Source of the DNA: an uncultured Candidatus Saccharibacteria bacterium
Lineage (GTDB): Bacteria > Patescibacteriota > Minisyncoccia > Phycocordibacterales > DATDWN01
Direction of reading: 5' to 3'
Assembly: GCA_964507615.1 (NCBI GenBank)
Contig: CAZDPS010000001.1
Coordinates: 25,777-89,776 of the forward strand
Length of the DNA stretch: 64,000 nt
Below are positions 6,324-55,606 of this stretch, piece by piece; the first letter of the stretch is position 1; each line of letters opens with the position of its first letter. The notes under the pieces are model-generated. The model searched no databases. It worked only from the letters and a program-made list of their open reading frames with translations, and had not been told where the DNA came from. Position numbers and translations under genes: made by a program.

Positions 6324-6511
6324 CTTTCCTTTAGTGCATTAACTTCCCTTTCTAAATCCTCCAGTCTTTCGTGGTCAGATTTATGATGAATGAGAGCTTT
6401 TTGAACAAAAGGCCAAATAAGAAGACCTATAATAACATCAAAAATAATAATGAGCATAAGCTCAAAATACCAGTGAGCCGGATCTCTAACTAGATGTAAA
6501 AATTCTTCCAT
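6320..6511 (-). CDS. Small membrane protein (63 aa)
   Basis: One hydrophobic helix (WYFELMLIIIFDVIIGLLIWPF) plus charged tail; followed by a terminator. Confidence 0.5.
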   Translation of the reverse strand: MEEFLHLVRDPAHWYFELMLIIIFDVIIGLLIWPFVQKALIHHKSDHERLEDLEREVNALKER

Positions 6512-6574
6512 CCAAACATAATAATACTTTTAGACTTTTTATACAAAACAAAATCTAAGAGCACCTCTCAGGTT

Positions 6575-7066
6575 TTACCTATTACGATCTAGAACGTGAG
6601 CTGATACAAACATAATTACCCTCTTTTTACCCTCAGAATCTTCAAATGAATCTCTTTTAATAGATACCTCTATACCAAGAGTCCAAAGTTTTTTTATTAA
6701 TAATTTAAAACCTTCTTCCCTTTCGTTAGCCATTTCCGGATTGGTATAGTGAAGATCGATTGCATCACCCCGCATTAGAGACAGCTTGACTGTTTTTAAT
6801 AAAAGTTTCTCAGATCTAGTAAAAGTATCAAATTTCTCATCAATAACATCCAACATCCTTGGGGCCTCCCTCATCTCTTTAGCAAAATCAGCTAATTTTT
6901 GCTCTGGAGACTCCGCAACATTTTTCGTATAATTTTTTTCTTGTTCTTTCTGTGCAATCTCAAAACCCTCATTCCTACTTTCACTCATGATTTTCTGTTC
7001 ATCTGTCATCATATCTTCAGCTTTTTTAATTTCCTCTTCTGTTGGTTTATATCCTTCTTCACTCAT
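6575..7066 (-). CDS. Hypothetical acidic protein (about 163 aa)
   Basis: Track ORF 6575..7204 trimmed to MSEEGYKPTEEE...; the upstream part overlaps repeat A1 and looks non-coding. Confidence 0.5.
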   Translation of the reverse strand: MSEEGYKPTEEEIKKAEDMMTDEQKIMSESRNEGFEIAQKEQEKNYTKNVAESPEQKLADFAKEMREAPRMLDVIDEKFDTFTRSEKLLLKTVKLSLMRGDAIDLHYTNPEMANEREEGFKLLIKKLWTLGIEVSIKRDSFEDSEGKKRVIMFVSAHVLDRNR

Positions 7067-7156
7067 ATTTTTTAAATTAGATATTAATAACCTAATTTTA
7101 CCCCCACCCACAGGGAATGCAAGGGAAAAACAAATCCCACTGTAAGCGGGTTGTGA

Positions 7157-7285
7157 GTTAGCTCGGAGGATTTTTCGCGAAGGTCGCGTATAAAATTCGA
7201 GCAAGCGAGGAGCCGTACAATGGTACGGTGACGAGAATGCGAGGATTTTAGACGATGAGATTCGTGAAAAAGACCCGAGCGACTA
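7157..7285 (+). repeat. Family A imperfect palindromic intergenic repeat, copy A1
   Basis: Boxes aaggtcgcgtataaaat ... gaggagccgtac-aatg-gtacggtgacgag ... attttagacgatgagatt; related copies at 19041, 28488, 55436. Confidence 0.7.
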
Positions 7286-14232: not shown

Positions 14233-14291
14233 TTTTCTATTATAACAAAAACAAATAAAATAACTCTATCTACATTTGCCTTATAAGAAAA

Positions 14292-14324
14292 AGGTGGTGG
14301 TTGCCCGAGAGCTAACCACCACCT
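14292..14324 (-). terminator. Intrinsic terminator of GC-rich island 2
   Basis: Perfect 11-bp stem aggtggtggtt/aaccaccacct followed on the minus strand by tttttctt. Confidence 0.75.
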
Positions 14325-14344
14325 ACCGACGTTCTTGTGGGAGG

Positions 14345-14560
14345 TCACCGACGACGAGCTGCTATCATCTTCCCCAAACCGTCGATCAGCTCGGCCAACG
14401 CTAAGCCCAAACCCACCAAGAACGCGAGCTCACCCGTGAGTGGAATGACTGTAGCATCCAGTACGGGAATACCAAGTAGGTCGATGGGCCAGGACAATAG
14501 TCCAATCCCAGCCAGAACCAGCACGGTCGGCAGTAGTAACCGGAACAGCAACTTGATCAT
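14345..14560 (-). CDS. Small hydrophobic protein (71 aa), GC-rich island 2
   Basis: MIKLLFRLLLPTVLVLAGIGLLSWP...GELAFLVGLGLALAELI...AARRR (two predicted TM helices); SD aaggagg 5 nt before ATG; own promoter TTGACT-17-TATAAT (14605-14577). Confidence 0.6.
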   Translation of the reverse strand: MIKLLFRLLLPTVLVLAGIGLLSWPIDLLGIPVLDATVIPLTGELAFLVGLGLALAELIDGLGKMIAARRR

Positions 14561-14576
14561 GTGACCTCCTTTTATT

Positions 14577-14605
14577 ATTATAGTACAATAAAAAATATAA
14601 GTCAA
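14577..14605 (-). promoter_or_regulatory. Sigma70-like promoter for the 71-aa ORF
   Basis: Minus strand TTGACT (14605-14600), 17 nt, TATAAT (14582-14577). Confidence 0.6.
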
Positions 14606-14615
14606 GTCACATATA

Positions 14616-15019
14616 CAAAAAGGGCCCGCGTTGCAAGCAACGGGGCCCTGGTCTGAGAGAATCCGCAAATCCTCTCAATGGACCTGTTAGTCGAGTGATC
14701 GGCTCACTCTGTGCCACCGGGGACCTACCCCCCGGCTAGGACTCAGTTCTTCATTCACACTCCTTGATGAATTTGGAACCACGCGAGTCTTGGATTACCA
14801 CTTAACCAACCCGATACGGGCGTCAGCGTTCCGGCTCAACCATCACCCATTTGCCCCTTCTGGAGCTATGGACCTGATTCGACTTCGCTTTTTTGGAATG
14901 ACCATCAAGTGGTCAGACGCGTAGGCGGTCATCGAGATATTGGTCCTTATTGTTTGGGGACGGCCTTATTTGCCTTTCCGAAGGGTTTTGTGACAAACCT
15001 CTCTCGCTTTTATTTAACT
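14616..15019 (-). ncRNA. Candidate structured ncRNA of about 400 nt (unclassified), GC-rich island 2
   Basis: Bounded by promoter TTGACA-17-TATACT (15054-15026) and terminator hairpin 14621-14649 plus U-tract; no ORF longer than about 30 codons; many short GC-rich hairpins (ccgggg/ccccgg, gagtga/tcactc, tgacca/tggtca, tgagag/ctctca). Confidence 0.5.
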
Positions 15020-15025
15020 GTGTTA

Positions 15026-15054
15026 AGTATAGCACAGCACCATGTTTCTGTCAA
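15026..15054 (-). promoter_or_regulatory. Sigma70-like promoter of the island 2 ncRNA
   Basis: aatcgcTTGACA-17 nt-TATACT; the -35 box starts 5 nt after the recJ stop; flank homologous to the island 6 promoter. Confidence 0.6.
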
Positions 15055-17282: not shown

Positions 17283-18037
17283 ATTGACTCAACTAGTTTT
17301 ATTATTTCAATAAAATCTTTTGCTCTTAAACTTTCTCGTCCAACTAGGAGGCCCGAAACATTTCCATCACGAACAAGCGAGTCTGCGTTGACCCTATCAA
17401 CATCTCCTCCATAAAGAATTTTCATACTGTCTGAAAAATTTCCACACAAATCTTTCAAAACTTTTTTAATAAAAATAGAAGTCTCAAGTAGGTCCCTTGG
17501 GCTCATGGACTCCCTCGCTCCGATAGCCCACAAAGGTTCGTAAGCAATAATAACTTTGTCTAACATTTTTTTTGGAACATCTTTGAGTCCAGATGTGATT
17601 TGCTGTTTTATGAAATTATAAAAATCCCCATTTTGATCTCTCGTCTCCTCCCCTACACAAAGTATGGCCGTCATACCGCCACCCACCACTGCTCTAACTT
17701 TTTTATTTATCAGCTCATCACTCTCTCCCATTTTTCTTCTCTCTGAATGTCCTACAATCACATAGTCAACTTTGAAATCTGATAGCTCGGTGTAACTCAC
17801 TTCACCTGTGAAAGGTCCTTGTGATTCATAACTAACATTTTGAGCACCAAGAAAGAAATGAGTATCTGAAAGAGAAGTTAAGGGTGACAAAAAAACAAAT
17901 GGAGGACAGATGACCACATCTGTTTTTTTTAATTCTCGTGTTCCTCTCTTTACACTCTGCGCTAGTTTTTTTGCTTCATCCAAACTTTGTGGGTTCATTT
18001 TCCAATTTCCCACAACAAGCTTTTTAGATTTTTTCAT
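17279..18037 (-). CDS. tpiA: Triosephosphate isomerase
   Basis: VVGNWKMN, VGHSERR, AYEPLWAIG motifs; start trimmed to MKKSKKLVVGNWKMN. Confidence 0.9.
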   Translation of the reverse strand: MKKSKKLVVGNWKMNPQSLDEAKKLAQSVKRGTRELKKTDVVICPPFVFLSPLTSLSDTHFFLGAQNVSYESQGPFTGEVSYTELSDFKVDYVIVGHSERRKMGESDELINKKVRAVVGGGMTAILCVGEETRDQNGDFYNFIKQQITSGLKDVPKKMLDKVIIAYEPLWAIGARESMSPRDLLETSIFIKKVLKDLCGNFSDSMKILYGGDVDRVNADSLVRDGNVSGLLVGRESLRAKDFIEIIKLVESI

Positions 18038-18063
18038 AGATATAATTGTACCACAGCAGTTTC

Positions 18064-18149
18064 TATACGAAAAAACCCGATACAGAGAATCTGTATCGAG
18101 TGTGCAGGTAGGGCGCACCGAAGCGCCCTACCTTGAATGTGCTACCTGC
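18064..18149 (-). terminator. Tandem-hairpin terminator module of island 3 (shared with island 4)
   Basis: Hairpins aggtagggcgc/gcgccctacct (18106-18133) and cgatacag/ctgtatcg (18078-18098) followed by tttttt on the minus strand; first 41 nt identical to 24663-24703. Confidence 0.75.
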
Positions 18150-18160
18150 CCGCTCAGGAA

Positions 18161-18850
18161 CTAGCAGGCGGGCTTGCTTGCGACTTCTTCCGTCGCGAAG
18201 GCGGCTGGGGTCAGTTGCGGGAGAACGAAGCGACGCCCGTAGCCACCGTACCAGACGTAGGCGTCGGACAGCCGGCGAGCTTGGACGTCAAGGCCATCAG
18301 GGTGGACGCTCACGCCCGCAACGAAGAACCCGTTGCCCTCCTTCAGGAGAAAGAAGGTCCCGTAGCCGTCTTTGCGGAGCCAGCCCCGATGAGTCTCCAC
18401 GAAGGAGATCACTTGGTCCTGGGTCAGGACCAACTTGTCTAGATCTGCGCCGAGACTGTTGTAGATGTCGGTGAAGTCGCCATCGCGAACGAGCTCATGG
18501 ACTTCGACGTCCGTGTCGGGAGTTGCCACCCCCTCCACATCCAAGCCGTAGTTCACGAAGTCGCGGTCGATGTAACCCCGAAACACCTTGTCGACCTTGG
18601 CGATCGTTCGCTGGCCGGAGCATTCGGAGATGGTGAGCTTCGTCCCACCCAAGATGAGGCGGAGGTAGGGTTGAATTGTGAAGATCGGCTTTGGCTTCGG
18701 CACAATGTCCGCCTCGCCATCGAGGTAGGTCTTGACCATCCGAAGACGACCACCTTGACCGAGCAGGGTCACCTGTGACGGAGTGAACCCGTCTTCCTCT
18801 AGGCGATCCGACAACCACTTCATTTGATCGATTGTGTAGAGTGAGGACAT
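18161..18850 (-). CDS. Hypothetical protein (229 aa), GC-rich island 3
   Basis: Only frame with normal amino-acid composition in the GC-rich block; start taken at MSSLYTIDQMKW; C-terminus AYVWYGGYGRRFVLPQ resembles the island 4 protein. Confidence 0.65.
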   Translation of the reverse strand: MSSLYTIDQMKWLSDRLEEDGFTPSQVTLLGQGGRLRMVKTYLDGEADIVPKPKPIFTIQPYLRLILGGTKLTISECSGQRTIAKVDKVFRGYIDRDFVNYGLDVEGVATPDTDVEVHELVRDGDFTDIYNSLGADLDKLVLTQDQVISFVETHRGWLRKDGYGTFFLLKEGNGFFVAGVSVHPDGLDVQARRLSDAYVWYGGYGRRFVLPQLTPAAFATEEVASKPAC

Positions 18851-18981
18851 CGTCCTACCCTTTCTGGCACATCGTGCCAATGCTGGCCCAGCCCATGCTT
18901 TGCCACAGCAGAGAAAGCCCTGTTTTAGGACACTTTCTGTTGTGGCAAATGCAAGTAGTATTTTAAAGAACTATTTCCAGA

Positions 18982-19010
18982 ATTAAATACCTAAAACCAC
19001 CATGCGTCAA
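18982..19010 (-). promoter_or_regulatory. Sigma70-like promoter of island 3
   Basis: TTGACG (19010-19005), 17 nt, TTTAAT (18987-18982); followed by a 5' UTR of about 130 nt with inverted repeat tttgccacaacagaaag/ctttctctgctgtggcaaa. Confidence 0.5.
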
Positions 19011-19040
19011 TACATAAGTCCAGTCTATGTATTCCATAAA

Positions 19041-19189
19041 CTTTCATAATTTGGATGAAATCCCTAGGGCTTTCAGATTTGAGACAAGGTCGCGTATAAA
19101 ATAAAAAACAATTCCGGAGGTGTACATGTCGTACATTGAGGAAATTGTTTTTTATTTTAGACGATGAGATTGGCCAAATGTGGAAGCCC
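19041..19189 (+). repeat. Family A palindromic repeat, copy A2
   Basis: gagacaaggtcgcgtataaaat...ggaggtgtac-atgtc-gtacattgagg...attttagacgatgagattggccaaat; outer stem gggcttt/gaagccc abuts the stop of the PilX-like gene. Confidence 0.7.
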
Positions 19190-20658
19190 TACCTCACTTC
19201 GTCCCAGGAGACGATTTGATACTGATCGCTAGTCAGTGGAAAACTCGGAGGCGGACCATACAACAAATTTGCATCGTATATAATATTTCTAGTGTTATAA
19301 CCGGTACCATCTGTATAGGCAAAACCATAACGAATATTCGTCCCTATCATTCCATATAAGGTTATTGAGTTTCTGTCATAACCAGTACCACAATCAGATT
19401 CGTAGTAATATCTTCCAACACGACCGTTCTGTGCTATAAGCGCAGCATCAATTCGTAAATCGTTGAGACTGCCCAAACCTGCATTTATATTTCCCTGTGC
19501 TATGAGGGCCAAAACATCTTGACCATCATAATTTGTATATAACAAATTATTATTCACTGTTATTGATGGTCTAGTACTTGCGTTATCTGGAAATCTACCG
19601 GCTGCCAAAGTAACGCGAGCTGTATTTATTTGGCCTTCAACCCAAACGTTGTCTTCAACAAAAATAAGTCCATTAGCTGTTATTGGGTAGTTGCCGATGA
19701 AAGTCTGATTTCCACTGCCCGTTGTTCTTATTGTCCATGTCCCCCAACCTGTCTGACCAGAAACAGCACTACATCCCGATGGTGGAGACATGAGATTGTT
19801 AACTCTGTAAACATCAAAAGTATCGTTTACTTTTAGAACAATCCTATAACCAGAAGCTCCTGAGCTTGATAGATATTTACCACTTGCCTGGGCATCGCTT
19901 TTTATTTGAGCCAAATCTGTGGTCAAACCAACAAAATCGATCGCAGGAACAGGAAAAGACCGGCCAATCATAAAAACATCTGCACGACTCGCCACACCAC
20001 TTGGAGGAGCTTCAGCAACTCTGAATGTATCATTGACACCTGTGGCTGGAGGCGGATTAACATGAGTATGAACACCAAATTCCATATTCCCTGTATGATC
20101 AGGATCATCATATCTATCTTTTGCACTTGTGATTATGTTATGGGCCAACCCATCAAAACGTATCCCTCCGTTTGAATGTATGGGTCCAAAAACTTCTGTG
20201 CCTGGACCAAAACGCATGTTATCGTTTGCTGCTATTGCATATTTGGCAAATGATGGGATAGCGAGTTGAACCACTATTGATCTAGAAACTGTGGGGTCCG
20301 ACAGAACTGTTCCGGTGGATTTTATTCTGACCAATGTAAAACCAGGAAGGGGTGGTGTAATCTCTAATGTAAAAGCACCAATTTCAATACCATCCTTATC
20401 ATAAAATGTATGTACGTAAGGACCAGGCTGTCCTGTGCCATCTTGATAGTCTGTCGAGGCATGAGCTAGGTGCCAACGATAATAGTCTATTCCCGCTTCT
20501 GCGATCTGTAGTGCTTGCTCGCGAAAAACTCCTATCCTTGATGCTTTGAGACTAACACTAGCCCAACTAATAAGGGCCCCTATCATTATTATAGAAATGA
20601 CCCCAAAGAAAAAAGCTTGGAGTAGTATAGAGCCGGATTGTAACTTTTTGCTTCTCAT
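19189..20658 (-). CDS. PilX-N-domain-like pilus assembly protein (489 aa)
   Basis: N-terminal TM then REQALQIAEAGIDYYRWHL (PilX_N-like A..AEAG motif); located in the pilus gene cluster. Confidence 0.65.
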   Translation of the reverse strand: MRSKKLQSGSILLQAFFFGVISIIMIGALISWASVSLKASRIGVFREQALQIAEAGIDYYRWHLAHASTDYQDGTGQPGPYVHTFYDKDGIEIGAFTLEITPPLPGFTLVRIKSTGTVLSDPTVSRSIVVQLAIPSFAKYAIAANDNMRFGPGTEVFGPIHSNGGIRFDGLAHNIITSAKDRYDDPDHTGNMEFGVHTHVNPPPATGVNDTFRVAEAPPSGVASRADVFMIGRSFPVPAIDFVGLTTDLAQIKSDAQASGKYLSSSGASGYRIVLKVNDTFDVYRVNNLMSPPSGCSAVSGQTGWGTWTIRTTGSGNQTFIGNYPITANGLIFVEDNVWVEGQINTARVTLAAGRFPDNASTRPSITVNNNLLYTNYDGQDVLALIAQGNINAGLGSLNDLRIDAALIAQNGRVGRYYYESDCGTGYDRNSITLYGMIGTNIRYGFAYTDGTGYNTRNIIYDANLLYGPPPSFPLTSDQYQIVSWDEVR

Positions 20659-20660
20659 TT

Positions 20661-21344
20661 TTATAAATTATCTTTAAGGTTACGTAAGTTTACCTGCGAA
20701 CTTACTATCATTTCAGCCGGGGAACGGTTTGGGTCTTTATCAATTATAACAGTAATTTTAACAAATCTTATTGATTGTATGTCTATGGGATATGACATTG
20801 GTGGTGTACTGCCTGTATAAGTCGATGGATAGTATTCAAATAAAGGTCTAGTAGAGCTCGCCACAAATCCAGATATGACAGTTGATAATTTTTCGTTTGC
20901 ACTATTATATGTAAGAGGGCTACCCGATGGAGCTGTTATGCCTCTCTTAACCTCCGTTCCACTCAAGAAATATCTAACCTTGTCTTTTAGTCCATTATTA
21001 TCTACGTCACTATAAAAAGTAACCCCGGTGGAAGATGCTAATTCGATTGAATACGCACCTACTGCGGATGGACCAACTTCCCGTAGCTCTGTTACCATAA
21101 CCTTCAATACGTGTCTCGCGTCTATTTGCGCATTTAAACTACCTTGTAATGAAAAATTTAGAGAGAAAACGTCTTTCTGAAAAGTAGAGATAATTAAAGA
21201 TAACATGCTCAATATAGCAACACTAATTAATATTTCAACCAAAGTGAATCCCGTAGTGAAGTTGGCATCTTCTTCTGTGCCTTTGGCACTATGCCAACTT
21301 CTACTACCGGAGAATCCTGTTTTCAAACTATTTTTTTTATACAT
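20661..21344 (-). CDS. Type IV pilin-like (pseudopilin) protein
   Basis: Prepilin-type N-terminal motif GFTLVEILISVAIL after a leader. Confidence 0.75.
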   Translation of the reverse strand: MYKKNSLKTGFSGSRSWHSAKGTEEDANFTTGFTLVEILISVAILSMLSLIISTFQKDVFSLNFSLQGSLNAQIDARHVLKVMVTELREVGPSAVGAYSIELASSTGVTFYSDVDNNGLKDKVRYFLSGTEVKRGITAPSGSPLTYNSANEKLSTVISGFVASSTRPLFEYYPSTYTGSTPPMSYPIDIQSIRFVKITVIIDKDPNRSPAEMIVSSQVNLRNLKDNL

Positions 21345-21354
21345 TTTTTAATAA

Positions 21355-23169
21355 TTAACTAGACATTAAAACAACTTCTGTAGATACCCACGGAGCATCT
21401 ACGTTGATCTGTACATCTTGACTCACATACCCCACCTTCTCTAGGTGTAAATTATATATGCCATTCAATAACCCACTAAATGATGTTTGCCCTGGTGGAG
21501 TACAAGATGATGTAAAGGTAAAAAATATGTCAGAAATGTTTGGTGTGGCTGTGGTCACACTAGAGTCAAGAAATAATTTATATCTCAGAAACCTATTACC
21601 ATTGTTACTCGAATGAATATTTTTATTGGCAACTGTGTAGTAGCTACTACTTGTTCCATCTGGGCCACTGAAATCCCAAGTTGCCCCATCATTGTTTGTA
21701 GCTATTTGGATGCGAACATTTGGATCCCCCGTTGCAACAGGCTGGTCTATTGGAGTCCAATCTATTTGCTGAAAATTACTTGCAGAACCAGTATCGAAAG
21801 ACGAAGAAGTCAAAACACCATTATGAACATAGTCACTAAACACTTTTTTTAATAAAACATCTCCTACAGGATCCAGTGTCTCTAAGTTACCGTCAGAAGC
21901 CAGATACATCGTTGTGTTTGTTGATGTTGCTTGCCCACCACCACCCGACCAATCTGTTTGACCCAAGAATCCCTGACCCGTAACTCCTGATTCACTAAAT
22001 CCTGTCTTGGTTAAAGTAGCCGACACACCAGAAAGAGGAAGATTGGTTGCCCCATCTTTTACGATAACAAGTAGGGTGTTTGGATCTTTGGATGCCATTA
22101 TTAATTGAACATTTTGCGTACTACCAGGAGTAACACTGATAGGAAGAAGAGGGTTTGTTCCAACAACATCATAAATTGAATCTGTCCCGGTAAATGAATA
22201 CGTATCCCACTCAATATCACTTAGTAACAATTGACCGCTTCCGTTTGTAATTTTATTTTCATCATATTTTAAAACATCTGGACTTGTTCCGATAAGCTTA
22301 TTTCCTTTAAGAGAGAAATCAAAAGAACCGACCGGATTACAAGTATTAGAAACAGAAGAAATATTTAATGAACTCAACTCGTCGATAACAAAACTAACTT
22401 GTGTTACTTGTTGCAAAACAATAGTTGCATGAGGTTTAGATGGATTAGAGTTGTCTATTGAAGCCATATATGTTTTGTCTGTAGAAAAACCAGGTTTACT
22501 TATGGTAATTTCGTATGCATTTATTCCAGGAGGCGCATCAACGACCTGAAGCATTCCACTATTATTTGTGACGTCATCAATAATGATCGGTGGCACAACT
22601 TGATTGTTTTCGATGTGCACATTAGCCCCTTCTACCGGATCACCGTTGGCATCAAAAACTCTAACAAAAAGTGCTCCGTTGGTAGATGCTGTCTCTAGAT
22701 TTTTTGGAGACACTCTTGTAGTAATAACCATTGGTACAAAATTTTTACAACTCGTACAATTAACCTCTATTTCAACTATTTTAGAATCCGCCGGGGAAAG
22801 ATCGTTCGGCGTCCCACCCAAAGTACCATCAAAGGGATCGTCAAAATTTCTAACTGTTGTTAAGACTGTGTATTGATATGTGTCTCTCACAATGTTTTGT
22901 GAGTGAACAAGAACCCCAGATGGAATACCTGAAACCACTCCAACACTTGAATATGGAAGATTGCGAACAATCTCTAACCTTTCATTTATCAAACTAATCG
23001 CCTCAATTTTTGCACGACTAGCATGAACCACACTAAAAACACCAACATAGGAGTTGTATACAGCCAAAACAATGACAAGAAAAACTGCGGTGCCTATCAC
23101 GAGTTCTACAAGAGAGAAACCAGAGGAAAATTTTTTTAGGTTTATGTTTTTCTGATTTTTCAGTATCAT
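21355..23169 (-). CDS. Large pseudopilin-like protein (604 aa)
   Basis: Prepilin-type motif SGFSLVELVIGTAVFLVIVL; long beta-rich Ser/Thr/Asn-rich extracellular part. Confidence 0.75.
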   Translation of the reverse strand: MILKNQKNINLKKFSSGFSLVELVIGTAVFLVIVLAVYNSYVGVFSVVHASRAKIEAISLINERLEIVRNLPYSSVGVVSGIPSGVLVHSQNIVRDTYQYTVLTTVRNFDDPFDGTLGGTPNDLSPADSKIVEIEVNCTSCKNFVPMVITTRVSPKNLETASTNGALFVRVFDANGDPVEGANVHIENNQVVPPIIIDDVTNNSGMLQVVDAPPGINAYEITISKPGFSTDKTYMASIDNSNPSKPHATIVLQQVTQVSFVIDELSSLNISSVSNTCNPVGSFDFSLKGNKLIGTSPDVLKYDENKITNGSGQLLLSDIEWDTYSFTGTDSIYDVVGTNPLLPISVTPGSTQNVQLIMASKDPNTLLVIVKDGATNLPLSGVSATLTKTGFSESGVTGQGFLGQTDWSGGGGQATSTNTTMYLASDGNLETLDPVGDVLLKKVFSDYVHNGVLTSSSFDTGSASNFQQIDWTPIDQPVATGDPNVRIQIATNNDGATWDFSGPDGTSSSYYTVANKNIHSSNNGNRFLRYKLFLDSSVTTATPNISDIFFTFTSSCTPPGQTSFSGLLNGIYNLHLEKVGYVSQDVQINVDAPWVSTEVVLMSS

Positions 23170-23271
23170 AAAATTTTCAATTTCTAATTGACCTAATTAC
23201 TCTAATTTCTAAGCAAATTCTAGTTTGATTTATTTAGGTCAATTAGAATAATTAGAAATTAGGTTAATTTT

Positions 23272-24483
23272 TTACAGTGCATCTGCCAATGAATATGTTG
23301 GTCCCAGCATCGATATAGCAAAGAACCCAACAGCCACACCTATAACAATCATAATGAGAGGCTCTATTATGGAAGACATGTCCTTTGTCTTCTGATCAAC
23401 CTCCTCCTCATAAAACACTGCTACACCCATGAGCATCTCCCCTATTTTTCCAGTTTCTTCTCCCACTGCGACCATCTCTCCTACAAATAGCGGATAGAGA
23501 TCGTTGTGACTAGAAAGCACAGTTGAAATCTGCTCTCCCTTCTGAATCTTTTCTTGCATTTCATTTAACACTTCTTTGTAATACGAGTTTTGTACAACGT
23601 CTTTTGTAACACCGAGTGCAACCACCACCTCAACTCCGGAAGAAAGAAGTGATGACAAGGTCCTGGCCATACGAGCAGAGTTAATTTGTCTCGTTATTTC
23701 ACCCACAACTGGCAAGTGAAGCAATATTGAATCCATAACCCTATGGCCTTTAACACTTCGGAAAAATACAACCAAAGAAGATATGCCTGCCAATACCCCG
23801 ATTATAATAAATAGAAAATAATTCTTTAGAAAATCACTGATAGCTATGATGATGCGAGTTGATAGAGGAAGCTTAATATTCAAACCAACAAATGTGGCTG
23901 TCAGTGTAGGCACCATGTAAACAAGCATCAGAACTCCAATAATAATCATTAAGGTAAAAATAACTGCTGGGTACATCATAGCTCCCTTTATCTTTTTTGT
24001 TAGTTGGTATGACTTTTCCATTTGCAAACCAACATTCTGTAGAGCAAAAGAAAGATTACCTGACTCTTCACCCGCACGAACCATGGACACAAATAGAGTC
24101 GAAAATATTTTTGGATAATCTTTCATTGCGTCACTGAAGGTCACACCCCTGGAAAGAGAATCATAAAGCCCAGAAATAACTTTTTTGAAAGTCCCCTTAC
24201 TCTGTCTCTGTAATATAGAAAGAGCACGAGTAATAGGAAGCCCTGCCTCAATCATTTTGGAAAGATTTCTTGCAAAAATTATTTTGTCATGAGCTTTTAC
24301 ACTACCAGAAAAAGGCATAGAGAAAGACAGAAAGGAAGACTTCTTTTTTACTTCCTCTGCGAAAATCACCGTACTACCATCTTGCTTTACGGTGTGATAA
24401 AGAGAAAATTTGTCCTGTGCTTCTGCTGTACCCTCAACTGTCCTACCCTCTCTGCTTATCGTTTTGTAATGAAATAGTGGCAT
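23272..24483 (-). CDS. pilC: Type IV pilus platform protein PilC (T2SS F family)
   Basis: 403 aa, two GspF-type repeats, three TM segments; adjacent to pilB. Confidence 0.9.
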   Translation of the reverse strand: MPLFHYKTISREGRTVEGTAEAQDKFSLYHTVKQDGSTVIFAEEVKKKSSFLSFSMPFSGSVKAHDKIIFARNLSKMIEAGLPITRALSILQRQSKGTFKKVISGLYDSLSRGVTFSDAMKDYPKIFSTLFVSMVRAGEESGNLSFALQNVGLQMEKSYQLTKKIKGAMMYPAVIFTLMIIIGVLMLVYMVPTLTATFVGLNIKLPLSTRIIIAISDFLKNYFLFIIIGVLAGISSLVVFFRSVKGHRVMDSILLHLPVVGEITRQINSARMARTLSSLLSSGVEVVVALGVTKDVVQNSYYKEVLNEMQEKIQKGEQISTVLSSHNDLYPLFVGEMVAVGEETGKIGEMLMGVAVFYEEEVDQKTKDMSSIIEPLIMIVIGVAVGFFAISMLGPTYSLADAL

Positions 24484-24545
24484 GAAATAGTTTTTGTAAA
24501 AATTACTAGATGTAAAAGAGTAAAATAAATTTTAATTTATCTTAA

Positions 24546-24591
24546 TTGTATCAAAAATAAATTTTTAATACATAAAAAATGTGTAAAAGTT
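24546..24591 (-). promoter_or_regulatory. Conserved promoter/operator upstream of pilC
   Basis: About 45 nt nearly identical to 27409-27454; minus strand has palindrome ACACAtttttTATGT and extended -10 TGaTACAAT. Confidence 0.55.
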
Positions 24592-24662
24592 TTTTAATTG
24601 CTTCCGTAGTCCCTGTAATCAAACATCTTTTCCATAGTGACACCTGTGTAAAGTTAAAAATT

Positions 24663-24746
24663 TATACGAAAAAACCCGATACAGAGAATCTGTATCGAGT
24701 GTGTAGGTAGGGTGCCGAGGCACCCTACCTTGAATGTGCTACTTGC
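24663..24746 (-). terminator. Tandem-hairpin terminator module of island 4 (shared with island 3)
   Basis: Hairpins aggtagggtgc/gcaccctacct (24705-24730) and cgatacag/ctgtatcg (24677-24697) plus T-tract; C-G to T-A compensatory change relative to island 3. Confidence 0.75.
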
Positions 24747-25161
24747 GAACGCCGAGGAACCGACAGCCGCCACCCCAGCCAACGTCCCACCAGCTGAGGC
24801 CGAGGTCCCGCCGGGAGACGACCCTGTCGAGGTACGCCACGCGACGGTAGCCGGGGACCTCGCACGAAGAGCCGAGAGCGACGATTGGGAACTGCCTCTG
24901 GACATCGGGATTCTTGGCCCCGAAGGAGAGTAGCTCGTGGATCGTTGCTGAGCGGTATCCGAGCTTGTCCATCTCCAGGACTGCGTTGTCGGACGAGATG
25001 AACTTGTTGAAGTGGATGAGCTCTGCACTCACCACAGTCTCGCGGGTTCCCGTCTTGGGAAAGTTCACCTCGGTGATGCTGGGGTTGACCCAGTCGTAGG
25101 CGCCGGCCTTGATCATATCGACCAACGACAGAGCGAAATTCACAACAAATTCATACACCAT
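24739..25161 (-). CDS. Hypothetical protein (140 aa), GC-rich island 4
   Basis: SD aggaga 7 nt before ATG; normal composition, unlike overlapping frames; C-terminus WDVGWGGGCRFLGVRK. Confidence 0.65.
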   Translation of the reverse strand: MVYEFVVNFALSLVDMIKAGAYDWVNPSITEVNFPKTGTRETVVSAELIHFNKFISSDNAVLEMDKLGYRSATIHELLSFGAKNPDVQRQFPIVALGSSCEVPGYRRVAYLDRVVSRRDLGLSWWDVGWGGGCRFLGVRK

Positions 25162-25217
25162 GGTGTATCTCCTGGGGCCATTAGGCCGAAAGTGGCTGTC
25201 AAACCGTTCTGAATACT

Positions 25218-25246
25218 ATCATACACCTAAATGGTGATAATGTCAA
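25218..25246 (-). promoter_or_regulatory. Sigma70-like promoter of island 4
   Basis: TTGACA (25246-25241), 17 nt, TATGAT (25223-25218). Confidence 0.6.
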
Positions 25247-25336
25247 GGATTTTATGGTAAAAATGACAAAAAAGGCCTGAAATAGGCCGTTTTTCCTAAA
25301 ACCTACACGGGCCAGGCCTATGTAGGTTCTAAAAAT

Positions 25337-25493
25337 CTCGTTGAAGTCGTATCTTTTGAAAGCCTCCACAACCCTCCAGCATGGTTCAGTCAATGACCCT
25401 GAGCATAGCGAAGGGCTCTTGACGGATGGAGGGTGAGGACAAGCCAGCCCATTCGCAGGAATGGGCTGGGAAGCTTTCAAAAGATATGACGAG
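25337..25493 (+). repeat. Family C structured repeat, copy C1
   Basis: P1 ctcgt(tgaag)cgtatcttttgaaagc/gctttcaaaagatatgacgag; conserved core agcatggttcagtcaatgaccctgagcatagcgaagggctcttgacgg; second copy at 38554-38728. Confidence 0.7.
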
Positions 25494-25514
25494 AAAGAGA
25501 TTTTGGAAAAACCT

Positions 25515-27266
25515 TTATTCCGAAATAACACGGAGCACCTCTTCAATCGTTGTTAGACCTTGAACAGCTTGGAAAACTCCATCCTCAAACATCGTAAGCA
25601 TCCCCTCCTTCTCTGCTATCTCCTGGATAGCATCTGCTGTTCCCGATTTCAAAATAACCTCCTTTATAGCTGGAGAGACCTTCATTATCTCGTGTATTCC
25701 AATACGACCAGAGTATCCCTCACCTGCCGGAACATCTTTCTTTAACCTCCAGAAAGGTATTTCTGTCCAGTCATCTGACTTGCCGACAACTTTTTCGGCT
25801 TTCAAGGCCTTTAAGACTTTGTCCAAATCAACAGACTTACCCAGTGTTTCTAACTCTGCTTTTGTAAGAAAGTATTTTTCTTTCTGATCTGTCAATCTTC
25901 TAACAAGCCTCTGAGCAATAATAATATTTATTGTTGAAACCAAAAGAAATGGTTCAACTTTCATATCCATGAGACGAGGGATGGCACCTGCCGCGGAGTT
26001 AGTGTGTAGCGTTGAAAGCACAACGTGACCAGTCAAAGCAGCGTTAACAGCCAATGCCGCCGTTTCGTTGTCACGAATTTCTCCCACCATAATAATGTCT
26101 GGGTCCTGACGCACTAAAGTACGGAGACCGTTTGCAAATGTAAAACCTATTTCAGGACGAACCTGAGTTTGGTTTATTCTTTTCATCTGATACTCAATCG
26201 GATCCTCAATGGTAGAAATATTTACATCTGGAGTATTTAAAATATCTAGAATAGTATAAAGAGTAGTAGTTTTTCCTGAACCAGTAGGGCCTGTTGTTAG
26301 AATCATTCCGGTACTGGATTTTACTGCATCATGTATTCTCTCTAAACCGTCACCATGAAAACACAATGCTTCCAAAGTAAATCCAGAAACATTATCACGA
26401 AGAAGTCTCATCACTATTTTTTCACCATAATATGTTGGCAAGCTTGAAACACGAAAAGAAACTTTTTCTCCGTCTGAATCTATTTTAAACCTACCGTCTT
26501 GAGGAAGTCTTTTTTCATCTAGTTTCAAACTCGATAAAACTTTTATACGAGCCACGATACTTCCCGCCATATTTTTTGGCAGAATCATGGCATCATGCAA
26601 AAGTCCATCCAAACGATATCGAACTAGAAGCTCTTTTTCTTGTGGTTCTATATGAATATCTGACGCATTTTGCAAAATAGCATGTTTCAGAAGAGTGTCT
26701 ACTATACGAACCACAGGAACATCGTCCGCAAGTCTCCTCAAATCCTCTTCACTTGCACTTCCTTCAGGATCATCAGAAATATTTTTCAAAGTATTTGCAT
26801 CTTTTTGAATCAGGTCTCCAAATTCTGCCTTGAGAGATTTCTGATATTGCAAAATCGCACTCTTCATAGACTCTGCATCTGTAAGACGAGGAAGGATTTT
26901 CAAACCAACTTTCTTTTTTACGAAATCAATGGCTGTCAAATCCTCCGTATCAAGCATGGCAACCTCAAGGGATGTATCTGTTTTTTTGAAAGCAACAATA
27001 TTATGATTTCGTGCAATAGGTTCTGGAATAAGAGAGAGAACGTCAAAAGGAAGTTTCTCATTTTTTAAATCAACAAAAGGAATACCTAGAATGTAAGCCT
27101 GCATGCGACGCAAATCGTCTTCTGTCATTTTGCCTTTATTTACCAAAGATTTACCGATGCTTATACCAGTTTCTTTAGTTTCGTTTTCTGCAATATCCAC
27201 ATCAGCACGCGAAACCAATCCGGAGTCTAAAATAAATTCTTTTAGTTGTGTTTCTTCTATGTGCAT
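25515..27266 (-). CDS. pilB: Type IV pilus assembly ATPase PilB (GspE family)
   Basis: 583 aa; Walker A GPTGSGKTTT, Asp/His boxes; GspE N-terminal domain. Confidence 0.9.
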   Translation of the reverse strand: MHIEETQLKEFILDSGLVSRADVDIAENETKETGISIGKSLVNKGKMTEDDLRRMQAYILGIPFVDLKNEKLPFDVLSLIPEPIARNHNIVAFKKTDTSLEVAMLDTEDLTAIDFVKKKVGLKILPRLTDAESMKSAILQYQKSLKAEFGDLIQKDANTLKNISDDPEGSASEEDLRRLADDVPVVRIVDTLLKHAILQNASDIHIEPQEKELLVRYRLDGLLHDAMILPKNMAGSIVARIKVLSSLKLDEKRLPQDGRFKIDSDGEKVSFRVSSLPTYYGEKIVMRLLRDNVSGFTLEALCFHGDGLERIHDAVKSSTGMILTTGPTGSGKTTTLYTILDILNTPDVNISTIEDPIEYQMKRINQTQVRPEIGFTFANGLRTLVRQDPDIIMVGEIRDNETAALAVNAALTGHVVLSTLHTNSAAGAIPRLMDMKVEPFLLVSTINIIIAQRLVRRLTDQKEKYFLTKAELETLGKSVDLDKVLKALKAEKVVGKSDDWTEIPFWRLKKDVPAGEGYSGRIGIHEIMKVSPAIKEVILKSGTADAIQEIAEKEGMLTMFEDGVFQAVQGLTTIEEVLRVISE

Positions 27267-27999: not shown

Positions 28000-28212
28000 A
28001 TGGAAACCATCTGTGAGACTTCAGGACATCTGTCAGGGTCAACGGTCAGAGAACACCACCCGACATGCACGTGCAAGACCTGCCTGTGCCCGTGTTTCAA
28101 ACACCGAGAAGAGTTAGCAGAAAGACAGGAGAACCACAGACTTGAGCTCGAGCGAATGTACCGCGACCGCACTCGGGGTCGTCGCGACTATTCCGGTCCG
28201 ATTACAGACTAG
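28000..28212 (+). CDS. Cys/His-rich small protein (70 aa), GC-rich island 5
   Basis: METICETSGH...HHPTCTCKTCLCPCFKH... then charged helix; SD aggagg 8 nt before ATG; hairpin acggccgttccg/cgggacggccgt downstream. Confidence 0.6.
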   Translation: METICETSGHLSGSTVREHHPTCTCKTCLCPCFKHREELAERQENHRLELERMYRDRTRGRRDYSGPITD

Positions 28213-28284
28213 AGCTGAAACGTGCAGTTCTTCTAAATTCCTACGGCCGTTCCGATCTTCGGGACGGCCGTAAAATTTTAATGT

Positions 28285-28427
28285 TTGACCTGGTAGTAGA
28301 TTTTGGCATAGCTCTCTCGAGCGGGCGAAGCCCAATGCCAAATTCACTACCGGGTTGACAAAAACATGCATATTATGATATGATTGTTTTATCGAAGTTC
28401 GCCCACCCGGGCGGGCCATTTTTTTAC
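28285..28427 (+). other. GC-rich structured non-coding tail of island 5 (possible sRNA)
   Basis: Nested inverted repeats cctggtagt/actaccggg and tttggcat/atgccaaa; TTGACC-17-ATAGCT and TTGACA-18-TATGAT boxes; plus-strand hairpin gcccaccc.gggcgggc plus T7. Confidence 0.3.
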
Positions 28428-28487
28428 CCAAATATAGGGTAGAATAAAGAAGTAAAAATTTATAAACAATTATTAGCTAAAATAACT

Positions 28488-28612
28488 GAAAACTTTCAAA
28501 TTTGAGACAAGGTCGCGTATAAAATTTGAAAATAGATTGGAGGCGTACAGCAGTACGATGACAATCATTTTTAAATTTTAGACGATGAGATTGGCCAAAT
28601 ATGGAAGTTTTA
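28488..28612 (+). repeat. Family A palindromic repeat, copy A3
   Basis: gagacaaggtcgcgtataaaat...ggaggcgtac-agca-gtacgatgac...attttagacgatgagattggccaaat, immediately upstream of nusA. Confidence 0.7.
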
Positions 28613-31881: not shown

Positions 31882-31989
31882 CAAATCTGGCGCACTTCTT
31901 CGTTGCTCGTTTTGTTCGCTTCCGTGCAGTACTAAATGTACAGCTTGGTCACAAACAAAACTCCGCTTCTCGAACTACATCCAGATTTG
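31882..31989 (+). repeat. Family B palindromic repeat, copy B1
   Basis: Outer stem caaatctgg/ccagatttg; core ttcgttgctcgttttgttcgc..gtgcagtac-taaat-gtacagcttggtcacaaacaaaact; related to 39150-39262. Confidence 0.6.
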
Positions 31990-36142: not shown

Positions 36143-36167
36143 TAACTAAATAAATAGATACGATTAA

Positions 36168-36199
36168 GGCCCAGTACACGATATTCTGTGTACTGGGCC
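36168..36199. terminator. Bidirectional GC-rich hairpin between clpP and the island 6 ORF
   Basis: 12-bp stem ggcccagtacac/gtgtactgggcc, tttt on the plus side. Confidence 0.65.
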
Positions 36200-36232
36200 T
36201 TTTGGGCTGGGGAGCCCGGGAACTGGGAGGAA

Positions 36233-36505
36233 CTAGACGGCGATCCCCGCCCTGGCGAAGGCGGTGGCCAGGGTGTTGAACCCCCTGCCACGGACCGTCC
36301 GTGCGAGATGTTCGCGGTGCTCGGCGTACGCCTTGTCCAGATCGGACTTGGCGCGCTCGGCCATCTCGCGAGCGATCTGCTCGGCAGTCGGCTTGCGACA
36401 GCCGACGCCATGCAGGTGAACGCGCTCGCTCCCGCCCGGAGTGGGCTGCGAGCTGGCGTACGTGGTGAACTGACCACACTGGGCGCACCGGATGTGCTTG
36501 GTCAT
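36233..36505 (-). CDS. Small protein (90 aa) with N-terminal CxxC, GC-rich island 6
   Basis: MTKHIRCAQCGQFTTY...GVGCRKPTAEQIAREMAERAKSDL...; SD aggagg 6 nt before ATG; Ala/Arg-rich, high-GC codon usage. Confidence 0.6.
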   Translation of the reverse strand: MTKHIRCAQCGQFTTYASSQPTPGGSERVHLHGVGCRKPTAEQIAREMAERAKSDLDKAYAEHREHLARTVRGRGFNTLATAFARAGIAV

Positions 36506-36565
36506 GGGGACCTCCTATGGCCGTAGTTAGCCATTCCTTTGGCATCACTCGACCTTCCTGTGTAT

Positions 36566-36594
36566 ATCCTAGCATACTATACATCTTTTGTCAA
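36566..36594 (-). promoter_or_regulatory. Sigma70-like promoter of island 6
   Basis: aatcgcTTGACA-17 nt-TAGGAT; the aatcgcttgaca flank is identical to the island 2 promoter. Confidence 0.55.
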
Positions 36595-36822
36595 GCGATT
36601 TTATGCTTCCTCTGGACAATTCCCCACAATGGATATATAGTGTAGATATTATTTAAATTAATTAAATAACTGGTTGTTTTTGTTTTTCTGTCTATACTTC
36701 CGTTTATTAACCGAACTCTTATACAAATTTTAGAGATAAAAACTTTTCACATGATCCTCACAGACTACATATTGAATAAACTCTATATTTAGAAAAGCGA
36801 AAGCGGCTGTTATCCGCAAAAT

Positions 36823-39149: not shown

Positions 39150-39262
39150 TCGCTTGGTCTTTTTGTCCGATTTTTTCGTTGCTAGTTTTATTTTCTCCAC
39201 GCGCAGTATTAATATACAGCTTGGTCGTAAATAAAACTTCGCGCCTCAAACTCGAACAAAAA
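39150..39262 (+). repeat. Family B palindromic repeat, copy B2
   Basis: ttcgttgctagttttatttt..gcgcagtat-taata-tacagcttggtcgtaaataaaact, directly after the hup stop. Confidence 0.6.
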
Positions 39263-55435: not shown

Positions 55436-55606
55436 ACCAAAAATTTCAAATTTGGATGAAATCCGACGTGAAAAATGTACAAAATGTATTTGTGGAGATT
55501 TTTGTTCGAGTTCAAGGCGGAATGAGAAAATGTGAGGAGCCGTACTAAAGTACGGTGACGAGAATTTTTGAAATTCCAACGCAGAAATCGAGCAAAAAGA
55601 TCACAA
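55436..55606 (+). repeat. Family A palindromic repeat, copy A4 (long variant)
   Basis: Centre gaggagccgtac-taaa-gtacggtgacgagaa almost identical to A1; left end aatttggatgaaatcc also found at 19050. Confidence 0.65.

Follow-up and report, generated by a model that had tools for sequence, protein, structure and literature searches.

Two GC-rich genes sharing a 3′ hairpin module in a Candidatus Saccharibacteria genome: probable stand-alone targets of a diversity-generating retroelement

Why should two genes with very different products carry nearly the same sequence behind their stop codons? The question is raised by a 64,000-nt stretch of DNA from an uncultured Candidatus Saccharibacteria bacterium (assembly GCA_964507615.1, contig CAZDPS010000001.1, forward-strand positions 25,777 to 89,776), which we refer to throughout as the window. 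The window is ∼37% G+C and contains a few short islands at 50–60% G+C. Two of these, islands 3 and 4, are genes on the minus strand, island 3 beside tpiA and island 4 between pilB and pilC. An earlier note, made from the DNA letters alone, described their open reading frames (ORFs) of 229 and 140 codons and named the flanking genes. Both ORFs are as described, and domain matches confirmed pilB (T2SSE, MshEN), pilC (T2SSF) and tpiA (TIM). The note saw the two genes either as distant paralogs or as different cargo in a common chassis, and proposed that their structured 3′ ends might be a recombination or mobilisation site rather than only a terminator.

In a diversity-generating retroelement (DGR), a reverse transcriptase copies the RNA of a template repeat (TR) into complementary DNA (cDNA), misincorporating opposite adenines, and the cDNA replaces the variable region (VR) of a target gene. 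The answer that we favour is that islands 3 and 4 are stand-alone targets of a Patescibacteria-type DGR, their shared 3′ module combining a homing hairpin with a terminator; we regard this as probable. Each island would then be a transcription unit of its own, with a sigma-70 promoter, a ribosome-binding site, an ORF and the shared 3′ module. The last 120–135 nt of each ORF would be the VR, and its replacement by cDNA would rewrite the ligand-binding surface of the protein. The features of the two genes are as follows.

18982–19010, minus strand: putative island 3 promoter, read from the sequence (−35 box TTGACG at 19005–19010, 17-nt spacer, −10 box TTTAAT at 18982–18987)
18851–18981, minus strand: island 3 5′ untranslated region, with the leader motif AGTTCTTTAA (18963–18971), a long hairpin (18902–18946) and the Shine-Dalgarno sequence GGGTAGG
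18161–18850, minus strand: island 3 ORF, 229 aa (220 aa from an alternative start at 18823, the form recorded as protein P0032); predicted DGR variable protein of ‘family 3’
18214–18332, minus strand: probable island 3 VR, ending CCGCAAC (18214–18220) and placed by homology to VR/TR pairs of the family, which end ...CCGCAAC
18146–18213, minus strand: extension of island 3 that separates the module from the VR end, with two insertions in the alignment with ortholog L011
25218–25246, minus strand: island 4 promoter TTGACA-17-TATGAT, with 11/12 consensus matches the best promoter-like site found by a consensus scan of 17500–25600
24739–25161, minus strand: island 4 ORF, 140 aa; predicted single-domain, C-type-lectin-like DGR variable protein of ‘family 4’
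24742–24876, minus strand: probable island 4 VR, ending ...GTTCGCAAG just ahead of the stop codon TAG (24739–24741); its extent is taken from the 124–142-nt VR/TR repeats of the family

Two families of variable proteins

Neither protein has a match in Pfam, and the PDB sequences gave nothing useful for either family profile. The evidence on function comes instead from the genomic surroundings of the homologs. The island 3 family has 42 homologs, all of them in Patescibacteria, and a DGR-type reverse transcriptase lies ∼0.2–1 kb downstream in 11 of 30 genome loci. At L015, L016, L032 and L038 the mismatches between TR and VR fall all, or almost all, at template adenines; for the two families taken together, homologs paired with such a TR are also found at L049 and others. 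The C-terminal 50 residues are hypervariable across this family. For the island 4 family there are 31 homologs and a further 143 metagenome matches. On a Rokubacteria contig (L001), the homolog lies directly upstream of bAvd and RVT_1 genes, and the last 134 nt of the gene (VR, 6475–6608) are repeated 488 nt downstream (TR, 6963–7096), with every mismatch at a TR adenine. Among 74 further metagenome loci, 21 have a reverse transcriptase with DGR motifs, and at 27 there is a TR-like repeat with nearly every mismatch at an adenine; the genes themselves almost all end ...GTCCGCAAG-TAG/TAA. Given these VR/TR pairs and adjoining reverse transcriptases, islands 3 and 4 are therefore, with little doubt, both variable-protein genes of the DGR type.

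The island 4 locus can also be compared with that of a near-identical strain, L006. Only 3 of 399 nt differ upstream of island 4 and the flanks are 99% identical. The substitutions are clustered at nt 307–396 of the gene, mostly at first and second codon positions, and change 13 VR codons. Of these, 10 coincide with codons that hold template adenines in the family (Fisher p = 1.4e-4), a test that is independent of island 4's own TR as the TR-adenine codons were taken from 13 TRs of the family. In island 4 these family codons are 9, 11, 14, 18, 20, 22, 24, 27–29, 34, 36, 38 and 40, with the stop as the starting point of a backward count. Comparison of the two strains shows that island 4 varies in the manner of a DGR target. 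For island 3 the nearest comparison is with ortholog L011, where identity is 53–60% in the proposed VR and ∼80–90% elsewhere in the gene; indels are also present. We infer that both islands are still being diversified.

The C-type lectin fold is the usual fold of DGR targets (PMC5006420, PMC8144416). The AlphaFold2 model of the island 4 protein (mean predicted local distance difference test score, pLDDT, 96.9) was compared with the PDB using Foldseek, and the top 46 matches, and 49 among the 50 listed, were C-type lectin or C-type-lectin-like domains, at weak scores (E from 0.04, probability up to 0.98, template modelling (TM) score ∼0.5). The island 3 protein is modelled (pLDDT 86.6) as an N-terminal helical region followed by a C-terminal domain that bears the variable region; its tail, residues 212–229, which is encoded by the extension, is disordered. 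The order of strands and helices in this C-terminal domain (residues 60–211) is the same as in island 4, a likeness that is without statistical support.

Are the two genes then related? Sequence statistics do not bear out the suggestion that they are distant paralogs. BLASTP between the two proteins gives E = 1.4 to 13, and hhalign gives a probability of 5% for the full families and 1% for the trimmed domains, with the families aligned co-linearly. The similar C-terminal motif noticed earlier is indeed visible and lies within the variable regions of both families; by the same statistics it is not significant. What the two proteins do have in common is the order of their secondary-structure elements and the architecture of a DGR target. 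The alternative put forward at the same time, different cargo in a common chassis, is supported.

The promoters had also been said to resemble each other, and they do share the sigma-70 hexamers and a TTTAGGT(A/G) in the spacer; the likeness goes no further. The island 4 promoter is identical in strain L006. That of island 3 is weaker and was not called by the consensus scan; it is kept in orthologs L011 and L010, and L007/L014 have TTGACT-17-TATAAT.

The shared 3′ module

Behind the two genes, a 41-nt string is present in exactly two copies, at 18064–18104 and 24663–24703, where shuffled sequences lead one to expect none, and the whole of the 3′ flanks (18064–18149 and 24663–24746) is 92% identical over ∼84–86 nt. 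The exact and then near-identical flanks reported in the earlier note are thus confirmed, as is the presence of two hairpins in each, an 11-bp GC-rich hairpin and an intrinsic terminator. In the sense reading, the stop codon is followed by hairpin 1 and then by hairpin 2.

18106–18133, minus strand: island 3 hairpin 1, AGGTAGGGCGC-TTCGGT-GCGCCCTACCT, an 11-bp GC-rich stem with a 6-nt loop and no T-tract; proposed DGR target-site hairpin/cruciform
18064–18101, minus strand: island 3 hairpin 2 and tail (stem-loop 18075–18101, T-tract 18070–18075, conserved tail CGTATA), from the terminator scan
24705–24730, minus strand: island 4 hairpin 1, AGGTAGGGTGC-CTCG-GCACCCTACCT, an 11-bp stem with a 4-nt loop; proposed DGR target-site hairpin/cruciform
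24663–24700, minus strand: island 4 hairpin 2 and tail (stem-loop 24674–24700, T-tract 24669–24674, tail CGTATA), from the terminator scan

Hairpin 2 is an ordinary intrinsic terminator, a stem-loop running directly into a T-tract at the end of a gene. It reads CGATACAGA-TTC-TCTGTATCG plus the T-tract in both islands, and was called on the minus strand at 18101–18075 and 24700–24674, with a stem of 12 pairs that closes a 3-nt loop, followed by the tail TTTTTCGTAT. The two copies are identical, and the version in L127, an ortholog of island 4, differs by two compensatory pairs. In island 3 it stops just short of the tpiA promoter and start codon; as the last part of the module it would close the transcript ahead of the promoter of the next gene. 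The first part would be the junction that follows the VR end, CGCAA/G TAG CAC, where the slash marks that end. Between the two lies hairpin 1, which would be the DNA hairpin or cruciform that DGRs need beside the VR for retrohoming.

The first point to note about hairpin 1 is that its sequence varies and its pairing does not. Between islands 3 and 4 a C-G pair is replaced by a T-A pair (alignment columns 28 and 39), so that both sides of a single pair have changed, just as the earlier note had seen. The loops differ as well, in sequence and in length (6 nt in island 3 and 4 nt in island 4); on the sense strand they read TTCGGT in island 3, CTCG in island 4 and L127, and TTCG in L011. Across the four alignable copies no internal pair is lost, and double-sided changes are found in 3 of the 11 pairs and one-sided changes in none (0/11). 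The proportion of paired alignment cells is 97.7–100%, and falls to 29–57% when the 3′ partners are slid by 1–3 columns. The sample is small, with four sequences and the observed score reached in 9–15 of 500 shuffles, and the pattern is supportive, not conclusive, of a stem conserved for its structure rather than its sequence.

The layout also recurs with stems of unrelated sequence, in the same position, behind the target gene of L044 (a short contig from this genome, described below) and in L007, L126, L127 and L011. The 3′ end of the L044 target runs CGCAAG-T-TAGCAC, 4 nt, a GC-rich hairpin, ..CAC.., a terminator hairpin and TTTTTTGATAC. The 3′ module is probably more than a terminator, as the earlier note supposed; the second half of that proposal is not supported, since nothing shows that the module mobilises genes. 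Where the note suspected a recombination site, the sequence is most likely that of the hairpin required by DGRs beside the VR (PMC3240598).

A precedent is the DGR of Bordetella phage, in which a hairpin or cruciform beside the VR is required for retrohoming, and in which the structure of the stem matters and its sequence does not (PMC3240598). Phage DGR hairpins have GC-rich stems of 7–10 bp placed 4–34 bp after the VR, and a 4-nt loop with the consensus 5′-GRNA on the sense strand (PMC3240598). The islands resemble the mtd target site of phage BPP-1 in having a VR that occupies the 3′ end of the ORF, a stop codon at the junction of VR and hairpin, a GC-rich inverted repeat a few nucleotides downstream and a stem that appears to be kept by structure. 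In island 4 the stem, with 8 G-C pairs out of 11, starts 12 nt past the VR end (CGCAA), which is within the published range (PMC3240598); in stem as in distance, island 4 suits the phage pattern. The corresponding distance is 28 nt in ortholog L011 and 81 nt in island 3, the latter because of the two insertions relative to L011. Unlike BPP-1, where the stem is 8 bp, the stem here is 11 bp; the homology between TR and VR in the family pairs examined ends at CGCAA(C/G), no pair of initiation-of-mutagenic-homing sites (IMH/IMH*) is definable without the cognate TR, and islands 3 and 4 do not have the reverse transcriptase and TR next to them.

It is possible to explain the module solely as a transcriptional 3′ end, with hairpin 1 an RNA stabiliser or auxiliary terminator hairpin and hairpin 2 the terminator, the whole being kept by recent copying and having no role in retrohoming. 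Hairpin 2 does have all the features of an intrinsic terminator, and compensatory changes suit a helix in RNA no less than a cruciform in DNA. Loops of the C(UUCG)G type are classic stable RNA tetraloops, and the L011 loop is of this type. Nevertheless, among the loci examined, a hairpin of this kind without a T-tract stands only behind VR-bearing genes, and it recurs behind five further DGR targets with unrelated stems but an unchanged position and layout. The remaining GC-rich islands of the window, when inspected, end in a single terminator hairpin each, and none has the tandem pair. We consider a pure transcript end unlikely. That hairpin 1 is the target-recognition hairpin active in retrohoming is, by analogy with the phage systems, the reading towards which we lean, with rather more confidence for it than against.

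A second alternative takes the module for the terminus of a small mobile element or cassette (such as a miniature inverted-repeat transposable element (MITE), a repetitive extragenic palindromic (REP) element or an integron-attC-like cassette) that inserts GC-rich cargo independently of any DGR. The islands are compact and unlike the genome in composition, they stand at different loci in related genomes, and the two modules of this genome are more alike than orthologous ones. Set against this, the window has just the two copies, both directly behind VRs, and the similarity starts exactly at the junction of VR and stop codon, as expected at the target site of a DGR. The copies do not form a tandem cassette array, and neither terminal inverted repeats nor target-site duplications were seen. 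A degenerate pattern of the module gave 0 matches in genome, metagenome and viral contig collections; the genome of the window is therefore outside these collections and the sequence of the module is lineage-specific. We judge a mobile element of this sort very improbable. As to an integron cassette with an attC site in particular, the copies are 6.6 kb apart among housekeeping genes and have their own promoters, and the candidate was set aside on these grounds, no search for intI having been made.

The 3′ flanks in the wider families have a pattern of their own. At L046–L125, L015, L016 and L038, 3–8 units of 8 nt ending CTTGG, CTTTG or CTTAG lie in the 80 nt past the stop codon of the target. 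Within those 80 nt CTTGG is 16-fold enriched over the background of the loci, the spacing of the units peaks at 8 nt, and the units often form an imperfect palindrome. The modules of the window have the perfect hairpin and no CTTGG array.

Reverse transcriptase, template repeats and exchange between loci

The window contains no reverse transcriptase; its one YxDD match falls in elongation factor G (EF-G). A search with the enzyme of L015, the closest complete cassette, found protein P0093, which has the motifs LGNLTSQ and YADD, matches Pfam RVT_1 and shares 69% identity with the DGR reverse transcriptase of L015. The contig recorded for P0093 is 103,256 nt long, and so is the one recorded for the exact island 3 protein, P0032. 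The DGR reverse transcriptase is thus very probably on the contig of the window, outside the window itself. Two short contigs with P0093 (L044 and L045) contain a complete DGR, consisting of a 226-aa target gene, a 126-nt TR and the reverse transcriptase. The VR and TR of L044 differ at 18 positions and all of these (18/18) are TR adenines; no avd gene was seen beside its reverse transcriptase, a further difference from BPP-1. This genome has at least three target-type genes, which belong to three sequence families and have one 3′ architecture and a partly common 5′ leader. One alone of the three families matches the recovered TR.

Several observations weigh against islands 3 and 4 being targets served by this machinery through hairpin 1. 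No TR for either gene was found in the window (blastn at word size 7 with the last 311–361 nt of both genes, where only the shared module matched), and the L044 TR, the only one recovered for this genome, matches neither VR. The placement of the reverse transcriptase rests on equal sizes in a table and on shared samples. The island 3 fold had no meaningful Foldseek match in the PDB or among viral models. As regards the hairpin, the 81 nt separating it from the VR in island 3 is outside the published range of 4–34 bp and none of the loops fits the 5′-GRNA 4-nt consensus; both points also suit a plain transcript end, and the consensus comes from phage DGRs and may not hold for the candidate phyla radiation (CPR) clade. 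A stable hairpin ahead of a terminator could equally work at the RNA level. Of 40 loci from the wider island 4 family, 4 have a perfect stem of at least 7 bp within 34 nt of the VR, with 1.6 expected, a count on which the perfect hairpin was rejected as a family-wide rule, and the loci bear instead the imperfect palindromes of 8-nt CTTGG units.

The want of a matching template, in the window or beside the sole reverse transcriptase found, would be expected if islands 3 and 4 were orphans, that is, former DGR targets that have lost their TRs, that now evolve normally and whose module is the fossil of an old target site. The insertions that push the island 3 hairpin to 81 nt from the VR would fit such a history; L007, which has a truncated TR and no reverse transcriptase beside its targets, demonstrates that decay occurs; and many family members have no reverse transcriptase within 5–6 kb. 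However, the concentration of the island 4 changes on TR-adenine codons points to recent templated diversification, and neither ORF is interrupted, each having strong expression signals. Other DGR lineages are known to have remote targets (PMC5758913). Furthermore, the sequence read amounts to a 64-kb window of a 103-kb contig and 3.2 kb around the reverse transcriptase from other assemblies. Orphaned targets are thus possible, though in our estimation doubtful, and active stand-alone targets remain the reading that we prefer.

The pilB–pilC gap of L007 (6400–9000; GCA_041664695.1, Paceibacterota) deserves description in its own right. In this related genome the gap contains a GC-rich gene of target type (218 aa), whose 3′ module resembles that of L044, a TR leader and a truncated TR encoding FATFNRWNDERK, compared with FATFRRWHGGRR in the gene, and no reverse transcriptase; it also holds P0034, a homolog of island 3. 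A gene of the island 3 type is thus found between pilB and pilC in L007 and beside tpiA in the window. From these contents it follows that the pilB–pilC gap recurs as a site of DGR genes, and that DGR cassettes decay there.

The near-identity with which we began is best explained by recent exchange or homogenisation of the modules within this genome. The two copies of the window are 92% identical, compared with 74–81% between each of them and its ortholog in related strains, and in strain L006 the island 4 locus bears the island-3-type stem GGGCGC. A homologous insertion (27–38 nt, CCCGCCTGCTAGT.CCTGAGC...) is also found at the same junction in island 3 of the window and in L127. All three patterns point to exchange of 3′ ends between the island 3 and island 4 loci. 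In island 3 the shared insertion is the second one (18146–18172, CCCGCCTGCTAGTTCCTGAGCGGGCAG) and the source of the stop codon at 18161–18163. Because the insertion brings its own stop codon, the island 3 protein and the L127 protein P0006 both end ..KPAC.

The 5′ ends have common elements too. The island 3 leader architecture is found directly after the −10 box in DGR targets of three families (L007/L014, L044, L126, L068, L039 and L053), and within the window its motif has a single occurrence, at island 3, so that island 4 lacks it. Aligned, the leaders have the consensus A(A/T)AGTTCTTTAA(A/C)A..ACTTGC followed by a long hairpin (window 18902–18971, minus strand; L007 ∼7866; L044 ∼91; L126 ∼215; L068 ∼4663).

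Composition sets the targets apart. The G+C content is 0.59 in the island 3 ORF and 0.60 in that of island 4, and at third codon positions (GC3) it is 0.76 and 0.81, compared with ∼0.3 in host genes. This applies to whole target ORFs and not to the VR alone, with C3+G3 at ∼0.77–0.81 and A3 at ∼0.10, where host genes have A3+T3 at ∼0.65–0.7. Target ORFs are GC3-rich from end to end (0.75–0.85 in islands 3 and 4, the L044 target, L015, L049, L052 and L046–L125), whereas the reverse transcriptases of the same cassettes (L044, L015, L049 and L052) have a GC3 of 0.29–0.43, near the ∼0.3 of the host. At nearly all loci of both families, the target genes are GC-richer than their flanks. Transfer of a whole cassette from a GC-rich donor was rejected as the source of the GC-richness because the adjoining reverse transcriptase genes are host-like in composition. 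An assembly chimera was rejected as well, the same junctions being present in independent assemblies from several samples (L006, L010, L011 and L127).

One could go further and suppose that DGR targets in this lineage ride on an exchangeable chassis, made up of the 5′ leader and the VR junction, hairpin and terminator, which is copied between unrelated C-lectin-like genes and served by one reverse transcriptase acting in trans with ‘solo’ TRs. Homogenisation of the module and the GC-rich codon usage (GC3 ∼0.8 against 0.3–0.4 in the host and the cognate reverse transcriptase) would then be by-products of frequent conversion at these loci, linked to cDNA or to recombination. We put this forward as speculation, and think it rather improbable.

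Other elements of the window and relation to known systems

The window has other GC-rich units and some repeats. No further copies or pseudogenes of the target families are among them. Three small GC-rich units, at 14280–14610 (minus strand), 28000–28430 (plus strand) and 36160–36600 (minus strand), each have their own promoter, Shine-Dalgarno sequence and single terminator hairpin. Pfam matches of their ORFs are below threshold, and none of the ORFs belongs to the DGR target families.

14345–14560, minus strand: 71-aa hydrophobic ORF, within the unit 14280–14610
28000–28212, plus strand: 70-aa Cys/His-rich ORF, followed by a second promoter-and-hairpin unit
36237–36509, minus strand: 90-aa ORF, within the unit 36160–36600

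A further GC-rich unit of ∼400 nt (14612–15050, minus strand) has a promoter, TTGACA-17-TATACT, and its own terminator. Every frame is interrupted by stop codons, and the fold predicted for the unit exceeds that of shuffled sequences in stability (z = −3.7). It matched no Rfam family even at E ≤ 1, it is neither a tRNA nor a transfer-messenger RNA (tmRNA), and its 27-nt core is absent from viral contigs. We regard it as a candidate structured non-coding RNA.

Two repeats were also found. One of ∼115 nt, TTGAGACAAGGTCGCGTATAAAAT ... GGAGNCGTAC..GTACG ... TTTTAGACGATGAGATTGGCCAAAT.TGGAA, is present at 7180–7269, 19070–19186, 28493–28607 and 55509–55596 of the window and at 2799–2905 of L044. It precedes nusA (28620) and, in L044, a gene whose translation resembles ribosomal protein S14 (rpsN), and is probably a promoter and leader motif. 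The copy beside island 3 (19070–19186) is followed by no plus-strand gene and looks like a fragment carried in a rearrangement. The other, an intergenic repeat containing ..AATGTACAGCTTGGTCACAAACAAAAC.., is found at 31896–31976, at 39157–39252 and at the end of L044; its copies are 81–90% identical and short-read contigs break there.

DGRs of the Patescibacteria (CPR) are reportedly treated by Paul et al. in Nature Microbiology in 2017. They are common in this phylum and make up a separate clade (‘clade 2’ of Roux et al. 2021), with small targets that have no recognisable domains (PMC8144416). The system described here is like these, and like the CPR lineage of Wu et al. 2018 (PMC5758913), in its Patescibacteria host and in its small targets without a recognisable Pfam domain. 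P0093 belongs to the same clade, being 65–75% identical to many CPR reverse transcriptases, and the targets probably have novel C-lectin-like folds. It differs in having at least three target-type genes of three families, two of which are away from the reverse transcriptase and do not match its TR. The contrast in GC3 between targets and reverse transcriptase is not mentioned for CPR DGRs in the accessible parts of these two papers (PMC8144416, PMC5758913).

Targets away from the reverse transcriptase and TR have a parallel in TvpA of Treponema denticola and other remote targets, which have shared 3′ recognition features, so that one machinery can act in trans (Wu et al. 2018, PMC5758913). Those remote targets all match a single TR, whereas here the VR of island 3 does not match that of island 4, and the known TR fits neither. 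The archaeal and nanoarchaeal protein AvpA (Handa et al. 2016, PMC5006420) is, like the island 4 protein, a small variable protein with a C-type-lectin-like fold and a C-terminal VR; the island proteins, however, have no sequence similarity to any solved structure, and the structural matches of island 4 are weak (Foldseek E ≥ 0.04, TM ∼0.5). Finally, group IIC introns, an analogy drawn in PMC3240598, are retroelements that recognise a DNA stem-loop which doubles as a terminator-like structure. There is no intron here, and a DGR replaces a segment of a gene and does not insert itself.

These findings leave the known mechanism of DGRs as it is. The hairpin adds natural covariation evidence for a target-site structure, in a clade where such a structure is unstudied. 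A single genome is seen to hold three target families with one 3′ architecture, of which the template that was found fits just one, and the sharp contrast in codon usage between the target genes and their own reverse transcriptase has no obvious explanation. For the organism itself, the DGR reading would account for two otherwise puzzling GC-rich islands in an AT-rich, reduced genome as hypervariable genes for surface or ligand-binding proteins, in a group of bacteria, the CPR, that probably depend on attachment to other cells.

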